Shown here one piece after another: positions 15,178 to 32,002 of a stretch of 36,800 nt of DNA. The stretch lies in IMG/VR virus record IMGVR_UViG_2721755498_000005. The stretch is one strand, 5' to 3'. The notes under the pieces are model-generated. The model made no database searches, was not told the DNA's origin, and saw only the letters and a list, made by a program, of their open reading frames with translations. This stretch comes from a virus (Duplodnaviria; Heunggongvirae; Uroviricota; Caudoviricetes). The position numbers and the translations under genes were made by a program. Numbering within the stretch: the stretch's first letter is position 1; every line of letters begins with the position of its first letter.

Positions 15178-15523
15178 TCTCGGCTCCTGTTGATACGGAA
15201 AGGGAAACAGGCACACCGTTATTACGCTGTCCGGTCAGTTCCACCACCATAGAACCGTCAAAATTGCTGTTGATGGTGATGGATTCCAGCGTCAGCCGAG
15301 GCTCCCAGCGACTCAGCGCCACATACACCGCCGACATAATCTGCAGGCGTAACGCCGGATTTTGTGGCTGGTCTATCAGCGCCGACAGCAGGGAACCATA
15401 TTCACGACGGGCAATGCGGCTACCCTGCGGCGTCAGCAGAATATCCCGCACCGACTGGCGCAGATGGTCAATATCAGTAATGGCTTTACCGCTGGTATTG
15501 TTCATCCCGATATAAAGCGTCAT
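15164..15523 (-). CDS. W: Baseplate protein gpW (gp25-like)
   Basis: 119 aa, position and size as P2 W; ATGA overlap with V. Confidence 0.75.
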   Translation of the reverse strand: MTLYIGMNNTSGKAITDIDHLRQSVRDILLTPQGSRIARREYGSLLSALIDQPQNPALRLQIMSAVYVALSRWEPRLTLESITINSNFDGSMVVELTGQRNNGVPVSLSVSTGAENGSD

Positions 15524-16098
15524 ACCGGGCCTCCGGTGGTGTCGCCACCTTTCTGGACGCCAGTATGCTGATGCGCATCAACCACGATCCCGTTAGAACT
15601 CATCGCACCGCCGCCCTGGGTAACGCCACCATTGATCACCACTTCGCTGTTAATACGTGCGCGGTCAGCCTCCAGTACAAACTCACTGGTTTTCAGGGTG
15701 ATGTTGTCGACAGCCTCAATGACCATTGATTTGATGCCCCTGACATACCAGCGCCCGGTGGCGGGTTCGTATTCAAACCAGCCACCGTCAGGATATTCTG
15801 TCACGCAGGCGTCCGCCGACGTCGACGGCGGCGCGAACTGATTCGAATAGACAGCGGGCAACGCAAAGGCGGTTTCCAGATTGCCACCCAGACTCAGCAG
15901 CACCACCTGCTCACCTTCCGATGGTTTCCACCATGTGCGGGCATTACCCGCACGCAGCGTCAGCCAGCTGATCCAGTTGGTTTCAAGGTCGCCTGTTTTC
16001 ACCCGGCAAAGCCAGTTCTCCCGGTCCACTTCGGTGACTACACCAGTGCGAATCAGGTTGGTGATAAGGCGCATGATTTCGGTTAAATGTGCGTTCAT
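15520..16098 (-). CDS. V: Baseplate spike/assembly protein gpV
   Basis: 192 aa; N-terminus resembles P2 gpV. Confidence 0.8.
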   Translation of the reverse strand: MNAHLTEIMRLITNLIRTGVVTEVDRENWLCRVKTGDLETNWISWLTLRAGNARTWWKPSEGEQVVLLSLGGNLETAFALPAVYSNQFAPPSTSADACVTEYPDGGWFEYEPATGRWYVRGIKSMVIEAVDNITLKTSEFVLEADRARINSEVVINGGVTQGGGAMSSNGIVVDAHQHTGVQKGGDTTGGPV

Positions 16099-16190: not shown

Positions 16191-16952
16191 ATGAAAGACA
16201 ATTTAAATCTTCTTATAAAAAAATTAATAAGAAAGGCATTTCCTGAATTTAGCAATAAGGTAACATGGACTTTACTCACTGCAGGGATCGGTATTCTTGC
16301 ACTACCTGCACCCACATATTTATTATTCGTAAACCTTATAATTGATTTTTACAACAAAACAACTAATTCAGAAATAAGCCTTCTTAAGATTGATAGCATT
16401 ACACCAAGTAGTGGGGTTGCTTTAACTTTAATTCTATCCGGGCTAGTCTTTCACCTATTAATAAAAGTCCCCCATATATACCAAGAAATTCTAAAAGAGA
16501 ATAACCAAAAAGAAATACAGGAAAGAAAAAGAGTAGCAGACGTTAAACTTTATGAGGCATTTATTGATATTCTACCAACAACCTCGTTATCAATTGAATT
16601 CTTAAAAGACCATAATTTTGAAAACTCCTATCATGATAATAATACAAAAGATATTAGTAATCTTGAATACGGGTGGGGTCATGCAGATCAACATTTTCAT
16701 GACAATGAAATTGAAGATAAAGCCACTCATCTTTACAGTGAAATAATAAAGTTTAATTATTTTCTCGCTTATAAATCGCACAATATCAATAACTATATGT
16801 TTAGCATGCTTACTGACAGAGATCGAGCTATGGTGATGGAATTACTACCTCAAACAAAGGAAAATATAAAAATAGCCAATGAGTGGAGTTCTACAATTCA
16901 TCAGCTTTACTGTGACTTTATCTCCACATGTAGGAATAACTTAGCCATATAA
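16191..16952 (+). CDS. Hypothetical membrane protein, AT-rich moron between V and S
   Basis: 253 aa ORF with AAGGA RBS; visibly AT-rich against GC-rich flanking phage genes; two predicted N-terminal TM helices; opposite strand to the surrounding late operons. Confidence 0.5.
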   Translation: MKDNLNLLIKKLIRKAFPEFSNKVTWTLLTAGIGILALPAPTYLLFVNLIIDFYNKTTNSEISLLKIDSITPSSGVALTLILSGLVFHLLIKVPHIYQEILKENNQKEIQERKRVADVKLYEAFIDILPTTSLSIEFLKDHNFENSYHDNNTKDISNLEYGWGHADQHFHDNEIEDKATHLYSEIIKFNYFLAYKSHNINNYMFSMLTDRDRAMVMELLPQTKENIKIANEWSSTIHQLYCDFISTCRNNLAI

Positions 16953-16970: not shown

Positions 16971-17414
16971 TTAAGACAAGTAGCGAAAAAAAATATCACG
17001 AGTTATCATTTCCGCTTCGTCGTTAACACCCAAAAGGCGACGCTCTGCGTAACGGACCTCCGGCCCTTTGCGACTGACGCGATCGCGCAGGCCGTAATGG
17101 TGAACACGGGCAATGCGCTGCACCTTACCTTCAAACTGCACGCTGGCAGAATCGGCGCTGGCGGCAGTTTTCAGATATTTTGTGGTGCGTAGCTTTGCAA
17201 ACATCTGACGTTTGATACGCCCCTTTTTACTGCGTGCTGTTACCCGTCGCGGTTCATAACTACTGCCATCTGGATTGCGCTGCATCCTGATGTTCTTCTG
17301 TTGTGTCCTGCGCAGTTCCTGCGCCAGCTGACGCATCATGCGGCTTCTTGCGGCTGGTTCCAGATTCGCCAGTAAGGCACTCAGCCAGTCGTCCACCTTC
17401 TGCAGTTCAGCCAC
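16971..17414 (-). CDS. S: Tail completion protein gpS
   Basis: 147 aa; close match to P2 gpS (MAEL.K.DDWL.ALLANLEPA..); GTG start. Confidence 0.75.
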   Translation of the reverse strand: MAELQKVDDWLSALLANLEPAARSRMMRQLAQELRRTQQKNIRMQRNPDGSSYEPRRVTARSKKGRIKRQMFAKLRTTKYLKTAASADSASVQFEGKVQRIARVHHYGLRDRVSRKGPEVRYAERRLLGVNDEAEMITRDIFFRYLS

Positions 17415-22917: not shown

Positions 22918-24684
22918 ATGAACACCACACTGACACCCGCAGATCTCGATCCCCGTCGGCAGGCCATGCTGCTGTACTTTCAGGGATACCGCGTCGCCCG
23001 CATTGCTGAAATGCTGGGCGAGAAAGTTGCAACCGTTCACAGCTGGAAAAAACGCGACAAGTGGGGTGACTATGGGCCGCTGGATCAGATGCAGCTCACC
23101 ACCGCCGCACGCTACTGCCAGCTCATTATGAAGGAGCACAAAGAAGGGAAAGATTTCAAAGAAATTGACCTGCTGGCACGCCAGTCTGAGCGCCACGCGC
23201 GGATCGGCAAGTTTAACAATGGCGGAAACGAAGCCGACTTAAACCCTAACGTTGCCAACCGCAACAAAGGCCCACGTCGTCAGCCGGAAAAGAATGTTTT
23301 CACCGATGAACAGATTGAGAAACTGGAAGAAATCTTCCATTCCTCTATGTTCAACTACCAGCGCCACTGGTGGGAAGCCGGAAAAACCAACCGCATCCGC
23401 AACCTGCTGAAGTCACGCCAGATCGGCGCGACCTTTTACTTTGCCCGTGAAGCCCTGATTGACGCCCTGCTGACCGGGCGTAACCAGATTTTCCTTTCTG
23501 CCAGCAAGGCTCAGGCCCACGTCTTTAAACAGTACATCATCGACTTTGCCAAAGAAGTGGAGGTGGAGCTGAAAGGCGATCCGATGGTGCTTCCTAACGG
23601 GGCCACGCTTTACTTCCTCGGCACCAATGCCCGCACGGCCCAGAGTTACCACGGCAACCTGTATCTGGATGAATATTTCTGGATACCAAAATTCCAGGAG
23701 CTGCGCAAAGTGGCTTCCGGTATGGCTATTCACAAGAAATGGCGACAAACCTATTTTTCCACGCCATCCAGTCTGACACACAGTGCTTATCCGTTCTGGT
23801 CCGGTGCGCTGTTCAACCGTGGGCGCAACAAAGCCGATAAGGTGGACATCGACCTGTCCCACAGCAATCTGGCCCCCGGCCTGCTGTGCGCAGACGGGCA
23901 ATACCGCCAGATAGTCACCGTGGAAGATGCGGTGCGCGGCGGCTGTAACCTGTTCGACCTCGACCAACTACGCATGGAGTACAGCCCGGACGAATACCAG
24001 AACCTGCTGATGTGCGAGTTTGTGGACGATCTCGCGTCCGTGTTTCCGCTCAGCGAGCTGCAGGCGTGCATGGTGGACAGCTGGGAAGTCTGGACCGACT
24101 TTCATGCACTGGCCCTTCGCCCGTTTGGGTGGCGCGAAGTGTGGATCGGTTATGACCCGGCAAAAGGTACGCAGAACGGCGACAGCGCCGGATGCGTGGT
24201 GGTGGCACCGCCAGCCGTGCCGGGCGGTAAGTTCCGTATTCTTGAGCGCCACCAGTGGCGCGGGATGGACTTCCGCGCCCAGGCGGACGCCATCAAAAAA
24301 CTGACCGAACAGTACAACGTGACATATATCGGCATCGACTCGACGGGTGTCGGTCACGGAGTTTATGAGAACGTGAAAGCGTTTTTTCCAGCCGTCCGGG
24401 AGTTTGTCTACAACCCCAACGTTAAAAACGCTCTGGTACTCAAGGCCTACGACATTATCAGCCACCGCCGTCTGGAGTTTGACGCCGGGCACAGCGACAT
24501 TGCGCAGTCATTCATGGCAATCCGTCGCGCCACCACCGCCAGCGGCAACCGCCCGACCTATGAAGCCAGCCGCAGCGAAGAAGCCAGCCACGCCGATCTG
24601 GCCTGGGCAACGATGCACGCATTGTTTAACGAACCGCTGCAGGGCGAATCCGCCAATACCAGCAATATTGTGGAGATTTTTTGA
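22918..24684 (+). CDS. P: Terminase ATPase (large) subunit gpP
   Basis: 588 aa, size and position as P2 P; divergent from O. Confidence 0.9.
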   Translation: MNTTLTPADLDPRRQAMLLYFQGYRVARIAEMLGEKVATVHSWKKRDKWGDYGPLDQMQLTTAARYCQLIMKEHKEGKDFKEIDLLARQSERHARIGKFNNGGNEADLNPNVANRNKGPRRQPEKNVFTDEQIEKLEEIFHSSMFNYQRHWWEAGKTNRIRNLLKSRQIGATFYFAREALIDALLTGRNQIFLSASKAQAHVFKQYIIDFAKEVEVELKGDPMVLPNGATLYFLGTNARTAQSYHGNLYLDEYFWIPKFQELRKVASGMAIHKKWRQTYFSTPSSLTHSAYPFWSGALFNRGRNKADKVDIDLSHSNLAPGLLCADGQYRQIVTVEDAVRGGCNLFDLDQLRMEYSPDEYQNLLMCEFVDDLASVFPLSELQACMVDSWEVWTDFHALALRPFGWREVWIGYDPAKGTQNGDSAGCVVVAPPAVPGGKFRILERHQWRGMDFRAQADAIKKLTEQYNVTYIGIDSTGVGHGVYENVKAFFPAVREFVYNPNVKNALVLKAYDIISHRRLEFDAGHSDIAQSFMAIRRATTASGNRPTYEASRSEEASHADLAWATMHALFNEPLQGESANTSNIVEIF

Positions 24685-25712
24685 TGGGAAAGATTAAGAA
24701 AAACCGCGCTGCGGCGACGAATCAGCTCAAGCATAAAAGCCAGACTTCAGCCGAAGCATTCAGCTTCGGTGATCCCGTTCCTGTACTTGACCGCCGCGAA
24801 CTGCTGGACTATGTGGAATGCGTACAGACAGATCGCTGGTATGAGCCTCCTGTCAGCTTTGACGGACTGGCGCGCACCTTCCGCGCTGCCGTGCATCACA
24901 GTTCACCAATTGCGGTGAAATGCAACATTCTGACCAGCACCTACATCCCTCACCCGCTACTCAGCCAGCAGGCTTTTTCGCGTTTTGTGCAGGACTATCT
25001 GGTTTTTGGTAACGCCTACCTGGAGAAACGCACGAACCGCTTCGGTGAAGTTATCGCCCTTGAGCCTGCACTGGCAAAATACACCCGACGCGGGTTAGAC
25101 CTGGATACCTACTGGTTTGTGCAATACGGTATGACAACCCAGCCGTATCAGTTCACGAAAGGCAGCATTTTTCATCTGATGGAACCGGACATTAACCAGG
25201 AGATCTACGGCCTGCCCGGTTATCTTTCTGCCATTCCGTCAGCTCTGCTCAACGAGTCCGCCACGCTGTTCCGCCGCAAGTATTACATTAACGGCAGTCA
25301 TGCAGGCTTCATCATGTACATGACCGATGCTGCGCAGAACCAGGAGGATGTGAACAACCTCCGCAATGCGATGAAAAGCGCCAAAGGACCAGGTAACTTC
25401 CGCAATCTGTTTATGTACTCGCCTAACGGCAAAAAGGACGGACTTCAGATCATCCCATTGTCAGAAGTCGCGGCGAAGGATGAGTTTCTGAATATCAAGA
25501 ACGTGAGCCGGGATGACATGATGGCTGCGCACCGCGTGCCGCCGCAGATGATGGGGATCATGCCGAATAATGTTGGGGGGTTTGGGGATGTAGAGAAAGC
25601 TGCTAATGTTTTTGTGAGGAATGAACTCATCCCTTTACAAAAAAGACTAGAAGAGCTGAACGAATGGATAAATGAAGAAGTTATTAATTTCGTGAGTTAT
25701 TCAATTACCTAA
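24681..25712 (+). CDS. Q: Portal protein gpQ
   Basis: 343 aa, overlaps the P stop; size and order as P2 Q; last 25 or so codons are AT-rich. Confidence 0.85.
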   Translation: MMGKIKKNRAAATNQLKHKSQTSAEAFSFGDPVPVLDRRELLDYVECVQTDRWYEPPVSFDGLARTFRAAVHHSSPIAVKCNILTSTYIPHPLLSQQAFSRFVQDYLVFGNAYLEKRTNRFGEVIALEPALAKYTRRGLDLDTYWFVQYGMTTQPYQFTKGSIFHLMEPDINQEIYGLPGYLSAIPSALLNESATLFRRKYYINGSHAGFIMYMTDAAQNQEDVNNLRNAMKSAKGPGNFRNLFMYSPNGKKDGLQIIPLSEVAAKDEFLNIKNVSRDDMMAAHRVPPQMMGIMPNNVGGFGDVEKAANVFVRNELIPLQKRLEELNEWINEEVINFVSYSIT

Positions 25713-25715
25713 TAA

Positions 25716-25746
25716 ACAAAAAGGCCATTAAATGGCCTTTTTGTTT
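25716..25746. terminator. Bidirectional rho-independent terminator between Q and the retron RT
   Basis: aaaaaggccatt aa atggccttttt hairpin with an A-run on one side and a T-run on the other; overlaps the RT stop codon. Confidence 0.5.
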
Positions 25747-26702
25747 TTAGGAAAAAGAACACTTAGATCAACCCCATATGCTTCAGACATTTTATTTGAG
25801 AAAGTCATCAATTTTCTATAGTTTTTCTTGTCTACACTTTTAACAAACGCAATAAGTCCTTTAACATGTTCGAAATCAGAATTTCTTTTTACCGCCAGAT
25901 AATGGATCTTACTTCTAATTTCGCGATAACGTATTCTGCCAACTCCAACATTATCAATAGATAAAACGAGCCCAGTAACCTCCTTCCTTGCTTTGGGGCC
26001 ATGAATCGCAACTTTATTATAATTAACCTTCAAAGATTCACTTGGTATTATAGAGCATACAAATGACTTAGCTTTAAGTATTTTTTTTAAAGATTGAGCA
26101 GATAAAGTCAAATCATCGGCATATCGAGTAAATACGATCCCCTTACTACCTGCATATCCATGTATTCTATAATCTAATTTAGTTAAAACAAGATTCGCAA
26201 TCTTTGGAGAAGATGGTGCACCTTGAGGTAGCGAACCATTAAATGAACACAATCTTGCTAAAGCATTAGAAATAGTAGAGTTATACCCCAGAGAATGAAA
26301 AACAGTATAGATTTTCTCTATCAGAATAGTATTAAAACAATCTTCTAAATCAATATTTAATACATAGTTAGCTCCTACATGTGGGCTGGCATTATTTAAT
26401 ATTGATTGCCCTTTTTCAAAGCCTTTGGAAAATGGGGATGAATGTAACTTATCAAGGATGTTTCTTAACACCCAAGCTTGCAATGCCTTCAGCTCACGTG
26501 ATGGCTGTGAAATGATGCGGGATCTCTTGCCATCTCTTTTTGGCAACGAATAAACCTTATAGTATTTGTCAGCACGATAAATGTACAACCGGAGTATGTC
26601 TACTGATAAACGCATTTCTCTAGACATATCCTCTAAAGAGGACATAACAGGCAATCCAAGATTGCGTAAGCGAAAAACCTGAGATGGTGTTGCGGAAGTC
26701 AT
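25728..26702 (-). CDS. Retron-type reverse transcriptase
   Basis: 324 aa; RT motifs NIDLEDCF and FTRYADDLTLS (YxDD); size like retron RTs; ATG directly after the a2 repeat of the msr-msd. Confidence 0.85.
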   Translation of the reverse strand: MTSATPSQVFRLRNLGLPVMSSLEDMSREMRLSVDILRLYIYRADKYYKVYSLPKRDGKRSRIISQPSRELKALQAWVLRNILDKLHSSPFSKGFEKGQSILNNASPHVGANYVLNIDLEDCFNTILIEKIYTVFHSLGYNSTISNALARLCSFNGSLPQGAPSSPKIANLVLTKLDYRIHGYAGSKGIVFTRYADDLTLSAQSLKKILKAKSFVCSIIPSESLKVNYNKVAIHGPKARKEVTGLVLSIDNVGVGRIRYREIRSKIHYLAVKRNSDFEHVKGLIAFVKSVDKKNYRKLMTFSNKMSEAYGVDLSVLFPKNKKAI

Positions 26703-26866
26703 GAGCGCACCCTTACGTCATAAAAATCAGATTCCGAAGTGAAAGGAGAACATCGGGAGATGTTCTCCTTTCAATGAGGGAACTGGTAAAACTTCAGATT
26801 GTATGTAGGACAGCGAAACACTGTCCAGTGAACTTCCGGAGAAGCCACTCGCTAAGGGTGCGCAAA
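26703..26866 (-). ncRNA. Retron msr-msd non-coding RNA (template for multicopy single-stranded DNA)
   Basis: Flanking 11-13 bp inverted repeats (26705..26717 gcgcacccttacg and 26851..26863 cgtaagggtgcgc) in a1/a2 arrangement; perfect 14 bp stem with 4 nt loop at 26741..26772; minus-strand 5' end TGCGCACCCTTAGCGAG and 3' end GACGTAAGGGTGCGC match my recollection of Ec86. Confidence 0.65.
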
Positions 26867-27763
26867 ACGCATCCTATCATAGTGGAGTATTGTTTTACCA
26901 CGATTTTCGAAGTTCATCATATCCAGTCGTAGATTGTCCAAAGCCTTTCGATCAAAATGCTCAAGAACGTATTGCATACCAATTTCTGTAATATGGTATC
27001 CTTGAACTGAACGCCTAATTATTGACTCTTTAATCAAGCTTGAAATAACAGACTTAACGATAATTTCACAAAGAATAGCATCTTTCTTAGTCACCAAATG
27101 TAATAGCTCATATAGAAGTATATTATCTATACCATCCATCAAATATATACATGGCAGTATAAAACGCCGAGCGTGAAGAATATTATCTATTGAGTGATTA
27201 ACTGGGTTATTTTTTTTGATGTCATTAATACTTTTTATAATTCTATTATAAAAAGCTTTACCTGTACTCAAGCTTTCAAGAGTCGACAAATCTCCTCGCA
27301 ATACTGCACCGCTATTAGCACGCCGAAGCAGTTTTATAGGCCCATAATTAAGAAAGCTTTTTTTAAGTTTGAATTTGTCATCCTGAAGACATATCATTTT
27401 TTTGCACAGTTTTTCATTATTTGAAAATGCGCCCAATTCAGCGAAAGACCCTGGGCTTTCAGGAATAATAATAATAACATCGACTGAATCAGCTAAAATA
27501 TTCTCCAAACTTAAAAGACTATGCTGACCTTGTCCATACAAAAGCTCATCAAACAACTCCTCAGGATAGAATATTTCTATTTTGGGATGTGTTTCCAACA
27601 CTCTTTTAACTTTATTTCTACAAAAAAACGGATCATTCAAATCGCCCCCGCAAAGGAAAACAGTAACTTTATTTTTATTTTTCTGTTGAAAAAGCCGACT
27701 TTTAATTAAATTTGCCAGATTTTGCTTCTGCAACTCCGGAATAGTTTTCTTTTTCATATCCAC
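26852..27763 (-). CDS. Retron effector, nucleoside 2-deoxyribosyltransferase-like (NDT-like) protein
   Basis: 303 aa AT-rich ORF immediately upstream of the msr-msd; motif IIIIPESPGSFAELGAF resembles the NDT catalytic-glutamate motif; stop codon lies inside the a1 repeat. Confidence 0.7.
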   Translation of the reverse strand: MDMKKKTIPELQKQNLANLIKSRLFQQKNKNKVTVFLCGGDLNDPFFCRNKVKRVLETHPKIEIFYPEELFDELLYGQGQHSLLSLENILADSVDVIIIIPESPGSFAELGAFSNNEKLCKKMICLQDDKFKLKKSFLNYGPIKLLRRANSGAVLRGDLSTLESLSTGKAFYNRIIKSINDIKKNNPVNHSIDNILHARRFILPCIYLMDGIDNILLYELLHLVTKKDAILCEIIVKSVISSLIKESIIRRSVQGYHITEIGMQYVLEHFDRKALDNLRLDMMNFENRGKTILHYDRMRFAHP

Positions 27764-27823
27764 TTTTCCTCAGAATGATCCCATCTTTTATACAACATTC
27801 AAATCTGAGTTTCCACCCGCTGC

Positions 27824-27847
27824 GCGCGCTCGTATCCCCGCCACGCC
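27824..27847. other. Putative cos site (cohesive-end region)
   Basis: Minus-strand reading GGCGTGGCGGGGATACGAG matches the first 13 nt of the 186/P2 19-nt cohesive end as I recall it; lies in a GC-rich 244 bp intergenic region. Confidence 0.35.
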
Positions 27848-28007
27848 TGCCCGCTTTATGTAGCGGTTTTCATGCGCCTGCATGACATAAGCAAAATCCC
27901 GCCACTCCTGGCGGGCCTCAGCTAAAACGATCCTCAAACGATCATGCGGATTCATGCGGCATAGACATGCACAATCTCCAAAGCGGGCATCGAGACTTTT
28001 TGGAAAC

Positions 28008-28619
28008 CTACGTAACCACAGTTAATGTGTGCATCCTGTCTCGAATTGCATCACACGTCTCATCAAAAAGCTTGGTGATGGTTGTATGGTTCAACTCCGC
28101 CTCTTTCCAATAATTTTGCCCGTCAAATTCTGGATCGCTATGCTTAAACGATATTGACTCTGAAAGGCATTCCTTCCGGAAACGGTCCAAGATTATATAA
28201 ACCTCTGGTGAGATGAACGGTTTGTTAGATTCAACACTTGTAACAAAAGTGTTAAATGCATCAGAAAAAACTTTCAACCTTCTAAATTTTCTCTCTTCAA
28301 ATGGTTCGTTGGGGTCAACATGATCCAGCGCAGGCCTCAGCTTAAGCACGCTTTCTCTGGTTTCAAACATCGAATTCCAAATGAGACTATATGCTGATAA
28401 CTCCTTATCAAAATACGCTTTCGTTACATAAACAGAATTGTCTAACTTAGCCTTTATTCTTTCATTAGTTGCACTCAGTTGTGATTGAAATTCAGCAATA
28501 TCTTTGTTTAGCCGCGACTTATATCTTTCTAAATAAACTTTCCCGATCCAAACAAATATGCCAGATGCAACAAAAGACACCCCACCCAACGAAGCCAGAA
28601 CTTTAAAGACTAAATCCAT
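28008..28619 (-). CDS. Hypothetical membrane-anchored protein (accessory region next to cos)
   Basis: 203 aa ORF; ATG with GGTGGGGG RBS; N-terminal TM helix then a predicted coiled-coil/soluble domain; no family recognised. Confidence 0.5.
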   Translation of the reverse strand: MDLVFKVLASLGGVSFVASGIFVWIGKVYLERYKSRLNKDIAEFQSQLSATNERIKAKLDNSVYVTKAYFDKELSAYSLIWNSMFETRESVLKLRPALDHVDPNEPFEERKFRRLKVFSDAFNTFVTSVESNKPFISPEVYIILDRFRKECLSESISFKHSDPEFDGQNYWKEAELNHTTITKLFDETCDAIRDRMHTLTVVT

Positions 28620-28667
28620 TGCGCCCCCACCTGCAAAAATAGTATTCCATTATAAGCTAATACATTT

Positions 28668-28883
28668 TTAATCAAACAGGGGATAATTCGCGTCAACCTC
28701 ATCACTTCTCTGCTCTACCCTAGTGACTTCCATCAAAAACCCCAGGCCGTCATATAGCGAAACGGGGAATTCCAGCTCAAGCCAGAAGCAGTCTTCATAG
28801 ATGCGGCCCAACCAAAAACCTCCGCCACACTCCTTTGGGCGTTGAAAGAAGACCCAGTCGCCAAGGGTTAAACGTTCCAGCAC
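28668..28883 (-). CDS. Hypothetical small protein (doubtful)
   Basis: 71 aa ORF with GTG start and weak RBS, 48 bp upstream of the 203 aa gene; may be a remnant. Confidence 0.25.
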   Translation of the reverse strand: MLERLTLGDWVFFQRPKECGGGFWLGRIYEDCFWLELEFPVSLYDGLGFLMEVTRVEQRSDEVDANYPLFD

Positions 28884-29001
28884 CTAGCCCCGATAAATAA
28901 TCTGGTGATTACTGTCTTTTTTACCCATGGCTAACGCCTCGCTACTCTCGTTGTTCAACCTTGCTGACGTCAGATTCAAGTTCTTACATCAGGAACGTTC
29001 C

Positions 29002-29235
29002 TTAGTGCAGCCAGCTGTCGTCTTCCCAAACCTGTTGCATAATTTCCATCACCCGCTTTTTGTCTTCATCAAGCTTTAAGCCACTCAGCTCAACGCCGTT
29101 TGCCGACCCTTTACGGATGCGGATAGCGGTCTTGGGATAGATGGGTTGCAGGTTGCGGTAAAGCTCGGACTCCAGAGCGTCCAGGGTAGACTGGCTAATC
29201 TTCTGCTCTTTATCGATCATTATTTCAATGCGCAT
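29002..29235 (-). CDS. DinI-family protein (Tum-like module)
   Basis: 78 aa from the ATG at 29235 (GAGGTGA RBS); MRIEI.I.K......L..L..EL.......P...IR resembles DinI. Confidence 0.7.
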   Translation of the reverse strand: MRIEIMIDKEQKISQSTLDALESELYRNLQPIYPKTAIRIRKGSANGVELSGLKLDEDKKRVMEIMQQVWEDDSWLH

Positions 29236-29245
29236 AAAAGTCACC

Positions 29246-29434
29246 TCAGCTGATGACATCCATTGAGCGGTTGTATTCGTGGCTTCTGATTTTTGCCATG
29301 AGTTCATCAGTCAATTCAGAAACCCACTGCAGGGCCAGCCCCTTCTCTTCATCACTACACTCACTAGCCGCTACAAGCTTAAGAAAAAAATCAATGCGCT
29401 GGAGCTTCAAAGACTCCAAAAAATAGTCCTGCAT
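29246..29434 (-). CDS. Hypothetical small protein, first gene of the LexA-box-controlled operon
   Basis: 62 aa from the ATG at 29434 with AGGAGG RBS; LexA box 44 bp upstream. Confidence 0.45.
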   Translation of the reverse strand: MQDYFLESLKLQRIDFFLKLVAASECSDEEKGLALQWVSELTDELMAKIRSHEYNRSMDVIS

Positions 29435-29477
29435 CTTTCCTCCTATGACACCGCAAACAATACTGTACAGATAACCA

Positions 29478-29493
29478 CTGTTTATATTTACAG
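29478..29493. promoter_or_regulatory. LexA operator (SOS box)
   Basis: ctgtttatatttacag fits CTGT-N8-ACAG with an AT-rich spacer; tatgat/gataat -10-like hexamers adjacent. Confidence 0.55.
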
Positions 29494-29587: not shown

Positions 29588-32002
29588 TTAATACAGGTTC
29601 CGCCACTTATCATCTTCCTGCAAACGCTGGTTCCGATAGAAGACACGCAGGCCTGCTCCTGACGGAATACTGCCGCCGCGAAGGAGTAAATCGACCTCTT
29701 TCTCGCTGCCATCAAATCCTCTGGACTTCAGTTCATAGACGAGCTGCTGTCGTTGATGGTCTGTAATTCGCTGTTTGTAGTCTCTACGCCGTTTCGGTTT
29801 CACCAGGCGTAACCTTGCAGCCAGTTCCCGGCGCTCTTTTTTGTTCATACTGTGCAGGTAATCGTGCAACTCCTTGTCATCCATGTGGGTAATGTCCGTT
29901 CTGGTATCCCCATCAGCTGATTTGTCTTTCCCTTGTTGGTTCAAATTTTCAGCAAGGGGACAGTTATTGCCACGAGTCCAAGGGGCGCAAGCGCCCTGGT
30001 CGGCTGCCGCCTCCTGAACGTCAACGGCTTTACGAACCATTTTCCACTTCACTGCATGAGTGCAGATCTTGCCCTCTGCAATGGGTGACCAGATGCCATA
30101 AATACGAATGCCGTGATCGCCATAGGCGGTCGGCTCTTCGTTGATTTCATAAGCGGTTCTGATGAGGTGATATTTACGGGGAACCAGTACGCCGCCCTGC
30201 TTCATGATGTAGGTGGCAAAACAACCAGCATCAGCAGCAGCCAGGATGGCATCAAGGCGCGGGTTATCCAGTACCGGCGCACCTGCTTTTTTGTCCCCCT
30301 TTTGCCTTACCGCCTGACCAGCCAGCAATCGCAGTTCACGGTAAGCCTGACGCCCCGGAATGCCAAAGAAGCGGAATTGCTGAACACGATGCAAAGACGC
30401 CCAGGCATTCACGTATTCAGCGTTATCACGCAGAGATTTACCCGTTTCCTTGCTGATCTCGCCAGCCAGACCACGCCCGTCAATGTTCTTACTGATGTAT
30501 TTCGCTATGTAGCTTGTCGGCGTTCCTTTGCGCGGGTTAATCAGCTCAGACTTAAAGCGCGGCCCCGTGTTATTGCCCAGCTCCTCGCGGTCTTCACGGA
30601 TAGCAAACTTACGCAACAATGCTGTAATGGCGCGGCGGTCTTTTTTGCGCATGAAACACAACAGGTGCCAGTGAACTGTGCCGTCGTGATGCGGCTCAGC
30701 CACCCGCACGCCATACCAGCGCAACCCGGCTTTGTGCATCGCCTTACGAAATGCAGCAAACATACCGACCAGATAATCGCTGCTTTGTCTTACCGTCGCA
30801 TTTGTCCAGGTCGGGTTGGGCCTGCCGTTATTTAGCGTGGAATGGAAACGTGACGGACAGGTGATGGTGTAGAAAACGGCGCAGTCACCGCGCATTTCCG
30901 CGATAAGCTCCAGACCTTTAACACAGGCCATCATCTCATTGCGGCGATGCGCAGGGTTGCTGCTGCTGGCGTTTACCACATCCTCCATGTCTAGCGTGTC
31001 GCCGTCTTCGTTCACCAGTTCATGAGAACGGAAAAACTCCAGCGACTTACGGCGCTGCTCACGTTTATGCAACACGGCTTCATAGCTGACATAGGGAGAT
31101 GCTTTTTTGCTGACAAGGCAGACAGCACGCAACTGCTCTTCCCGCCATTCGCAACGCATCTTCCATAATTTCCGATACCACCAGTCGGCGCACAACATAC
31201 GCGCCAGCGAACCCGGAATGAGTTCATAGGGCACGGGTTTACGGCGGTTTCTTTTCCGACGGAGTTGCTCAAACGCAGGCGGGATGACATCCAGACGCAG
31301 GGTTTCCGCTGCCACCCTTTCCCATGTATTGCGGATTTCTTCTGGCTTAACGTCATCGGTGGCATACAAATCGCCACAAGCGGCATCAAGGCACATACTC
31401 ATATGCGCAGCTACCAGGGTGGACAGGCGTTTCACCTGATCCTGACTCATTTCAGGCAGGATCAGCAGGCCGTCCAGCCCTTCATGGCTTGCCATAAAGC
31501 GAAAAGATGCAGATAGCTGACTGTCGCGTACATGCTCCAGTCGTTCCAGACATGGCTTAATCGTCTCACGTAAATAGCGGGAATAAGCCTTTGGCCTGCC
31601 CAGGCTGCTGAAGTATTCAATACGTTGCATCAGCGGCTTGCTGATATGGGAAGGCTGGGCGTTGACGTCCGCCAGAATGACCATATCCGGATTAAAACGC
31701 TGCTGCTCATGCGCCAGCTTTGCCCGACTAATGAGCTTATCCTGTTCCATTTCGCGCTGGACAGGATCACGGGATTCATTAAAGAAATAACGCTCCCAGA
31801 CCTGATCACTCAGCGCCTCACGGCGCAGCTGTTCCTGCTCGTTATCGGCAGCGTACAGAGTGATCAGGTTTGAAAGCGTAGAAACCGGCGCAACTTCCAC
31901 CGGGTCCAGATAAGGGTTAATGGCCTTTTTCGAGCTGTTCCATGAGAACGATGCGGCAGCTTCGTTAAAGCCGCAGCAGTTGTTCATATCGGCATGACTC
32001 AT
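29588..32002 (-). CDS. A: Replication initiation endonuclease gpA (rolling-circle)
   Basis: 804 aa with the active-site tyrosine motif [12 protein letters not shown]. Confidence 0.85.

Follow-up and report, generated by a model that had tools for sequence, protein, structure and literature searches.

P2 carries the genes tin and old between gpA and the cohesive-end site (cos), and in lambda the rexAB and sieB genes lie near CI. The interval from gpA to gpQ has been described as the main defence hotspot of P2 (Rousset et al.; Moura de Sousa et al.). We analyzed a gene in this interval of a P2/186-like prophage (IMG/VR record IMGVR_UViG_2721755498_000005), the whole 36,800 nucleotides (nt) of which are hereafter called the window. 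The gene encodes a protein of 203 amino acids (aa; hereafter, the 203-aa protein). An earlier note, made from the sequence of the window, had placed it between cos and gene A and had seen neither an Old-like nor a Tin-like protein there. The site is correct, as a P2-type cos core was found at 27847-27829 on the minus strand, and none of the open reading frames (ORFs) between gpA and the portal gene gave an Old-like or Tin-like match.

Like P2 tin and old, the gene sits between gpA and cos and is a prophage-expressed accessory gene, but its product is unrelated to theirs in sequence and domains, is membrane-anchored, contains no ATPase or TOPRIM domain and matches no PADLOC model. An assignment to the OLD-family nucleases, including P2 Old, was rejected given the lack of any such match in Pfam, PADLOC or NCBIfam and the all-helical nature of the protein. 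With SieB of lambda and P22 and RexB of lambda, the 203-aa protein has in common its small size, inner-membrane location, expression in the lysogen from an accessory prophage locus, single-gene or minimal organization and lack of enzymatic domains. It differs from both in having a single transmembrane (TM) helix, a long stalk and a four-helix bundle rather than a polytopic fold, and no SieB or other abortive-infection or superinfection-exclusion (Abi/Sie) model of Pfam or PADLOC was matched by any of 143 diverse members of its family. We tentatively propose that the protein is a non-enzymatic, single-gene membrane phage-exclusion factor of the Abi/Sie type, similar in kind to SieB and RexB, because its invariant residues look structural rather than catalytic.

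The 203-aa ORF, which the earlier note could assign to no family, is a real conserved gene under purifying selection and not a chance ORF. The ratio of nonsynonymous to synonymous substitution rates (dN/dS) against the Enterobacter orthologs (83% aa identity) is 0.11 at a dS of 0.84, the ortholog in E. coli LF82 is transcribed, and an exhaustive hidden Markov model (HMM) profile search recovered 908 homologous 50%-identity clusters at E ≤ 1e-3 (381 at E ≤ 1e-10), nearly all of them 190–220 aa long and aligned end to end. A word-indexed search returned enterobacterial relatives only. In a genome scan the family was detected in Acidobacteriota, Nitrospirota, delta- and gamma-proteobacteria, Planctomycetota, Bacillota, Bacteroidota, Cyanobacteria, Verrucomicrobiota and one CPR (candidate phyla radiation) genome. 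The GC content of the gene is 0.39, compared with 0.52–0.61 for the phage structural genes.

HMM searches, which the note had named as a check, placed the protein in PHROG 26391 over its full length (E = 2.6e-141; residues 1–203 on profile positions 1–203), a group that carries no function annotation and far beyond which the family extends. No significant match to Pfam, NCBIfam, PADLOC or sequences of the PDB was obtained for the protein or for the 143 members, and the gene, starting at ATG 28619, is in no curated family. PADLOC-DB v2 gave no match to the window protein at E ≤ 1; among the 143 members there were scattered PADLOC matches of coiled-coil type, each in at most four members (best E = 1.2e-4). 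Likewise, a Pfam scan of the members at E ≤ 0.01 gave coiled-coil noise alone among the best 25 of the 27 families matched, and each of the remaining two was matched by one member. Several RefSeq records (e.g., WP_020218871.1; L001, 6187-6798) name the protein "valyl-tRNA synthetase", probably because of a coiled-coil match to Val_tRNA-synt_C that falls below threshold (E = 0.009; 16.7 bits, cut-off 25.9). The gene itself, its membership of PHROG 26391 and its moron status in LF82 are already on record, and as far as we found, the breadth of the family, the protein architecture, the exact relation to cos and the arrangement of a constant gene beside variable cargo have not been described.

Structure prediction and hydrophobicity agree with the architecture given in the note, i.e., one N-terminal TM helix, a coiled coil and a soluble helical domain. 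The single hydrophobic segment spans residues ~7–25 and is followed by a coiled-coil stalk (~27–60) and a C-terminal four-helix bundle (~60–199). The AlphaFold2 model, built from an alignment of 143 sequences (predicted local distance difference test, pLDDT, 95.1; predicted TM-score, pTM, 0.78), has one continuous helix at 13–92, comprising the TM segment, the stalk and the first bundle helix, and further helices at 107–131, 138–160 and 168–199. Stalk length differs by up to ~60 residues among members. Lysine plus arginine residues are more abundant on the C-terminal flank of the TM segment in 136 of the 143 members (3.1 versus 0.42 on the N-terminal flank), and where a second hydrophobic segment occurs, in a single member, it is an N-terminal, signal-peptide-like addition consistent with an N-out orientation. 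The topology is therefore predicted to be N-out/C-in, with the bundle in the cytoplasm.

Near-invariance across the family is seen at E73, W81, L94-R95-P96, P134-F135, E154, I192-R193 and R195. By position along the helices these residues appear to fall at both ends of the bundle, where they look like structural salt bridges and helix caps and not like a catalytic site; the protein may accordingly lack enzymatic activity. One face of the TM helix is rich in small residues (G12/G13, G20 and G26) and leads into the coiled-coil stalk, so the protein probably oligomerizes through these two elements. The N-terminal anchor, GG...WLGKVWANRILEQDR / …LSSWLGKVWANRILEQDR…, is also joined to unrelated C-terminal helical domains (P0222 and P0223), and many genome matches, including many partial ones among L081-L141, span the N-terminal part only, which together suggest that the TM-stalk is a modular membrane anchor reused by several families.

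Several identities suggested by this fold were considered and rejected. The 4HB (four-helix-bundle) sensors of chemoreceptors and histidine kinases (Tar/Tsr, TorS and Adeh_2942) are alike in generic fold only; Foldseek scores against them were not significant (E ≥ 0.02), and de novo designed bundles score alike. A 4HB_MCP sensor is further contradicted by the single TM helix, the predicted cytoplasmic location of the bundle, the lack of a HAMP, signalling or other downstream domain and the lack of sequence similarity to 4HB_MCP. Csx28, the Cas13b accessory membrane pore, appeared far down a list of generic helical bundles, and the gene has no CRISPR association. The HEPN motif Rx4-6H lacks conservation across the family: as R193-x3-H197 it is confined to the enterobacterial proteins, and no histidine is conserved after R193/R195 in distant members, so HEPN was rejected. 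Orf1 of the P2-like Haemophilus phage HP1 (205 aa, from the int-cI region), a BFVD match, had an hhalign probability of 0.4% and was rejected as a homolog.

On the minus strand of the window, the order is gpA, the 62-aa ORF, the DinI-family gene, a 71-aa ORF, the 203-aa ORF, a non-coding stretch, NDT and the reverse transcriptase (RT) gene. The features are as follows.

29588-32002, minus strand: gpA replication endonuclease
29478-29493: perfect LexA box CTGTTTATATTTACAG, 44 nt upstream of the operon of the 62-aa ORF and the DinI gene
29246-29434, minus strand: 62-aa ORF, PHROG 698, at the head of an SOS-type operon (29002-29493)
29002-29235, minus strand: DinI-family gene, in the head of the same SOS-type operon
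28668-28883, minus strand: 71-aa ORF, a PHROG 2100 remnant, a neighbour outside the module
28008-28619, minus strand: 203-aa gene, PHROG 26391, with its ATG at 28619
27764-28007: non-coding stretch of about 245 bp between the 203-aa gene and NDT, holding the hairpin and cos
27888-27915, minus strand: terminator-like hairpin and tail, 93 nt past the stop codon of the 203-aa gene
27821-27879, minus strand: cos region, the boundary of the 203-aa gene module
25728-27763, minus strand: type II-A retron (Ec86/St85-like), variable cargo on the far side of cos
24681-25712, plus strand: portal gene, abutted by the retron

The cos core, GGCGTGGCGGGGATACGAG, lies within the stretch equivalent to the cos of Cartapus, the prophage of E. 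coli LF82; in the Cartapus record the equivalent 59 nt are annotated as cos and the record ends with the 203-aa gene. A 186 cos sequence had no match within three mismatches, and cos was placed by alignment and by the annotation in Cartapus. Complete divergence of all aligned prophages sets in a few bases past ...GCGCGC (window ~27821), and megablast matches to other E. coli prophages begin at 27816-27822. Since cos follows the 203-aa gene and homology then ends, the gene is the last one on the gpA side of cos, with the variable cargo on the portal side. The earlier note had put the gene in an accessory region beside cos, which holds, but had left unmentioned that cos separates it from the truly variable sub-locus, here the retron.

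The hairpin that the note had offered as a terminator (27915-27898, minus strand; CCCGCCA-GGAG-UGGCGGG) was recovered, with a stem of 7 bp (six of them G-C), a GGAG loop and the tail AUUUUGCUUA. It is present in the minimum free energy (MFE) fold, its U-tract is interrupted, and substitutions in Cartapus and in one Enterobacter locus preserve the pairing through G-U. It is a conserved terminator-like element just before cos. The 186 nt past the stop codon are 88% conserved between E. coli and Enterobacter, compared with 82% for the gene itself. A 55-aa ORF (27788-27955, minus strand; PHROG 28685) overlaps both the hairpin and the cos core, and at other loci its frame continues into unrelated cargo ORFs; it is probably spurious and was treated as a non-coding artefact of the conserved cos flank.

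Upstream, the gene has a good ribosome-binding site, as the note had claimed: a Shine-Dalgarno sequence, AGGTGG (28632-28627), lies 7 nt before the ATG. It is preceded by promoter-like motifs.

28620-28700, minus strand: upstream control region, overlapping the 3' end of a PHROG-2100 frame
28696-28691, minus strand: TTGACG, in the upstream region of the 203-aa gene
28675-28670, minus strand: TTGATT, in the upstream region of the 203-aa gene
28654-28649, minus strand: perfect TATAAT, with a spacer of only 15 nt to TTGATT, i.e., non-canonical spacing

A strict sigma-70 consensus scan called no promoter in 28620-28700. The region with TATAAT and the Shine-Dalgarno sequence moves along with the gene, being kept by Cartapus, Enterobacter prophages and an E. 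cloacae island; the Enterobacter prophages and the island lack an intact upstream ORF and keep ~140 nt of the 3' end of PHROG 2100. As TTGACG, TTGATT, TATAAT and the Shine-Dalgarno sequence are conserved in all these loci, the retained remnant probably carries the promoter of the 203-aa gene.

Published RNA data for the ortholog in Cartapus (LF82_789/CARTA_47; 96.6% identical to the window protein), which is listed as one of the two Cartapus morons (Table 1, PMC9928086), reveal its activity in the lysogen. The values, log2(fpkm+5) from S1 Table of the same study, refer to the LF82 ortholog and not to the window strain, and are given below with those of the gene directly upstream, CARTA_46.

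CARTA_47: LB stationary 5.4-5.6; DMEM 1 h 7.1-7.3, 6 h 8.5-8.6; macrophage 1 h 9.0, 6 h 10.5
CARTA_46: LB stationary 3.1-3.3; DMEM 1 h 3.3-3.6, 6 h 2.6-2.8; macrophage 1 h 4.9-5.2, 6 h 7.5-7.7

CARTA_47 was 7-fold above the prophage background in LB and rose stepwise from LB through DMEM to macrophages, ~30-fold overall. It exceeded CARTA_46 by 4- to 63-fold in every sample (55- to 63-fold in DMEM at 6 h) and must therefore have a transcription start of its own. The cargo gene past cos, CARTA_1, tracks CARTA_47 (r = 0.96 across ten samples), which is compatible with read-through or shared regulation. CARTA_44 and CARTA_45, the orthologs of the 62-aa ORF and the DinI gene, were induced in macrophages only, a pattern that fits SOS control from the perfect LexA box. 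The tum operon of phage 186 is LexA-controlled, and the pattern of the two genes fits a tum-like operon. CARTA_47 is expressed from the repressed prophage independently of its neighbouring operons, as is expected of a moron. Given the low GC content, the conserved upstream region of its own, the terminator-like hairpin and the published expression of the ortholog, the 203-aa ORF behaves as an autonomous, lysogen-expressed, single-gene prophage moron, in line with the single-gene module of the note.

The gene was found in 51 of 5426 complete E. coli genomes, in 40 of them at ≥95% identity to the window gene; the 11 copies of lower identity (80–95%) carry indels, and those inspected lie in a decayed remnant beside DprA and PRTase. 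Some part of a 1.9-kb query, which ran from the 203-aa gene across the DinI region into the end of gpA, was matched by ~1280 genomes, so the gene belongs to the accessory content of a minority lineage. In E. coli RM10410 and AHB30 (L005/L006, 3160-5590), a degraded copy (~90% identity, with indels) sits beside intact DprA and PRTase in a prophage remnant without phage structural genes, which may be a "cryptic island" derived from the P2 hotspot.

What lies past cos in the relatives varies. The cargo was absent in some and in others was a DUF4145 protein (weak PD-T7-4 match, E = 1.2e-06), AbiU, a ShosA-like protein with PRTase, PDC-S33, PDC-S49, PDC-S59, PDC-M03A, a type II-A retron, an OLD-like protein, AAA_21 with RloB, a Schlafen/AlbA_2 protein or uncharacterized proteins. 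At least 12 cargo systems besides the type II-A retron thus occur beside the constant 203-aa gene, and the Enterobacter protein P0004 is unchanged beside five different cargos. Examination of the neighbourhood, which the note had proposed, accordingly found the gene itself constant but without a constant partner, the cargo past cos being swapped. In Table S5 of Rousset et al. the gene is listed only as "hypothetical" in such arrangements.

Distant homologs are solitary, with no recurrent partner, and in most loci have a GC content below that of their own contig or surroundings. The family is horizontally mobile: on viral contigs (L051-L055) the homolog directly follows a P4-type integrase and AlpA, in satellite- or island-like elements with an AAA_25 replication protein; the L057 homolog adjoins a type IV restriction enzyme and the L058 homolog a resolvase. 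The homolog of Pseudomonas phage Riah is flanked by a ParB-like gene and CI, a proximity to CI also seen for rexAB and sieB in lambda. A Maintenon-like Clostridium phage (L059/L060, 5944-7273) has two tandem diverged paralogs after the small terminase gene, with 24% and 23% identity to the window protein. Among 132 neighbours at 25 chromosomal loci, a survey that had no control set and is used qualitatively, the most frequent families were resolvase (n = 4), ResIII (n = 3), and SNF2, rve, recombinase and AAA_21 (n = 2 each), along with one type III and one type I restriction-modification locus.

Whether the gene acts alone or with a neighbour bears on every reading of its function, and two partners come into question. 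The earlier note had allowed for a two-gene module with the 71-aa ORF, which lies on the same strand 48 nt away, and the PHROG-2100 frame and the 203-aa gene do co-occur in ~40 E. coli genomes. The ORF exists at 28668-28883 and matches PHROG 2100 (E = 1.4e-28; profile positions 17–84 of 85), but as a gene it is only a remainder: an 86-codon frame (28668-28928, minus strand) opens at ATG 28928 and is closed by an amber TAG at 28886-28884, where Cartapus has CAG and an intact 86-aa gene, CARTA_46. Judged from these frames, it is the distal part, truncated by a CAG>TAG change, of an independent 86-aa PHROG-2100 gene. The truncated 216-nt allele accompanies the 203-aa copies that match the window protein (L030-L038), and Cartapus-type copies of 97% identity retain the full-length frame. 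Where the 203-aa gene is absent, diverged PHROG-2100 genes adjoin an Ec78-type retron or an Old-like nuclease, no PHROG-2100 ORF but only its 3' remnant is present upstream of the Enterobacter orthologs and in the E. cloacae island, and CARTA_46 and CARTA_47 are very differently expressed in LF82. This distribution contradicts a two-gene module, which we consider very improbable; it is the one reading in the note that fell, whereas the gene, its architecture, its site, the hairpin and the single-gene autonomy stood.

The other potential partner is the retron. PADLOC, a defence finder of the kind the note had in mind, detects this type II-A system nearby and nothing for the 203-aa protein. It consists, in this order, of the NDT effector (26852-27763; NDT_II-A, 2.6e-97), the msr-msd (~26703-26862) and the RT (25728-26702; RT_II-A, 4.9e-123). 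The retron non-coding RNA has a1/a2 repeats GCGCACCCUUA/UAAGGGUGCGC, which appear identical to those of Ec86, and a fold of -78.7 kcal/mol (z = -6.8). The gap at 27764-28007 was considered as the retron RNA and rejected, as it contains cos and the hairpin and the msr-msd lies between NDT and RT; downstream of the 203-aa gene Rfam gave no msr match even at permissive thresholds, and the msr of the retron also went undetected by Rfam. An accessory role for the 203-aa gene in this retron would fit its location, 245 nt ahead of the effector gene and in the same orientation, and one Enterobacter relative has the same pairing. However, cos intervenes, the homology among prophages breaks exactly between the two, and the same gene precedes at least 12 other cargos or none, with no constant co-occurrence of RT, msr-msd and NDT, so that the distribution leaves this reading with almost no credence.

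As a phage-exclusion factor, the 203-aa protein would insert its TM helix in the inner membrane in the N-out/C-in orientation, and the oligomeric TM/stalk would hold the cytoplasmic four-helix bundle some nanometres below the membrane. There the bundle could bind a component of an incoming or developing phage, upon which the TM/stalk oligomer might prevent genome entry or maturation, or else abort the infection by leaking ions. Position and architecture of the gene and its product point towards such an anti-phage function: no other gene lies between it and cos in the gpA-gpQ defence hotspot of P2-like phages, and its homologs are found in solitary and mobile contexts (integrase/AlpA elements, near CI, and beside restriction and resolvase genes). 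A number of observations weigh against it. Defence cargo in this hotspot turns over very fast and the 203-aa gene does not, as P0004 beside its five cargos illustrates, and such stability beside swapped cargo looks more like a lineage-core function. The 143 members have no meaningful PADLOC match even to the PDC candidates, which were derived from defence-island enrichment; the four-helix bundle is a generic fold that carries no functional signal; and many of the distant chromosomal neighbours are housekeeping genes, those of defence or recombinase type being a minority in the 25 loci. Our literature search found no published phenotype test of the gene, and its RefSeq accessions returned nothing in DefensePredictor or the LF82 CRISPRi study. 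The strong induction in DMEM and macrophages would fit a role in host fitness equally well.

The stability, the lack of a PADLOC or PDC signal and the induction under stress and in macrophages keep two other functions alive. Many prophage morons aid their host under stress, and the 203-aa protein could be a lysogen-fitness moron, a helical membrane protein that helps the host envelope in stationary phase, nutrient-poor medium or the phagosome. The ~30-fold climb of the ortholog from LB to macrophages, the constancy of the gene while the adjacent defence cargo is swapped and the many distant homologs among housekeeping genes all agree with this, and the architecture presumably resembles that of envelope proteins with a TM helix and a cytoplasmic helical bundle such as LemA or YhcB. 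We nevertheless regard it as unlikely, since the family is patchy, low in GC and often found on phages, satellites or in resolvase-integrase contexts instead of conserved chromosomal operons, since only 51 of the 5426 E. coli genomes carry the gene, and since no envelope-stress family was matched. The gene might instead serve the prophage or its cargo, as an accessory of superinfection or lysis timing, or as a promoter cassette from which transcription would pass the weak terminator and cos and give any new same-strand cargo expression in the lysogen. All downstream cargos do lie on the same strand and start soon past cos (~58 nt from the junction to NDT in the window), the U-tract of the hairpin is interrupted, CARTA_1 tracks CARTA_47 in the LF82 samples, and the gene is constant across at least 12 cargos. 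But the co-variation may merely reflect shared regulation of AT-rich DNA, the gene is missing from most P2-like prophages, which nonetheless carry cargo, and strong purifying selection together with hundreds of homologs outside P2-like phages argues that the coding sequence has a function of its own, which makes a service to prophage or cargo improbable.

Elsewhere in the window, a 253-aa ORF (16191-16952, plus strand) has a GC content of 0.31–0.36 and a hydrophobic segment and lies on the strand opposite to the flanking minus-strand ORFs (15520-16098 and 16971-17414) in the tail/baseplate gene region. It gave no PADLOC match, and its site may be the second P2 accessory hotspot.

Extended to the whole family, the exclusion reading would make these proteins, a large cross-phylum group of at least 900 clusters that has no Pfam model, single-gene membrane-anchored anti-phage proteins in which the modular "GG...WLGKVWANRI" TM-stalk anchor presents a cytoplasmic four-helix-bundle sensor, and which in 186-like prophages form a constant first line beside a swappable second system across cos; this broader claim is speculative and, in our judgement, rather doubtful. 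The 203-aa gene is moderately interesting and cheap to test, and not yet surprising. If it is a true exclusion factor, it would add to the defence catalogue a widespread and very small single-gene membrane system (~0.8 kb with its control regions) from a family that PADLOC and Pfam currently miss completely. Whatever its function, the picture of the P2 gpA-gpQ hotspot is sharpened, with the swapping junction within a few bases of the cos core and, in this lineage, a stable moron on the gpA side and fast-changing cargo on the gpQ side. Strongly induced as it is within macrophages in LF82, a Crohn's-associated strain, the gene is a concrete candidate for a part in prophage-mediated immunity or in host fitness in vivo.

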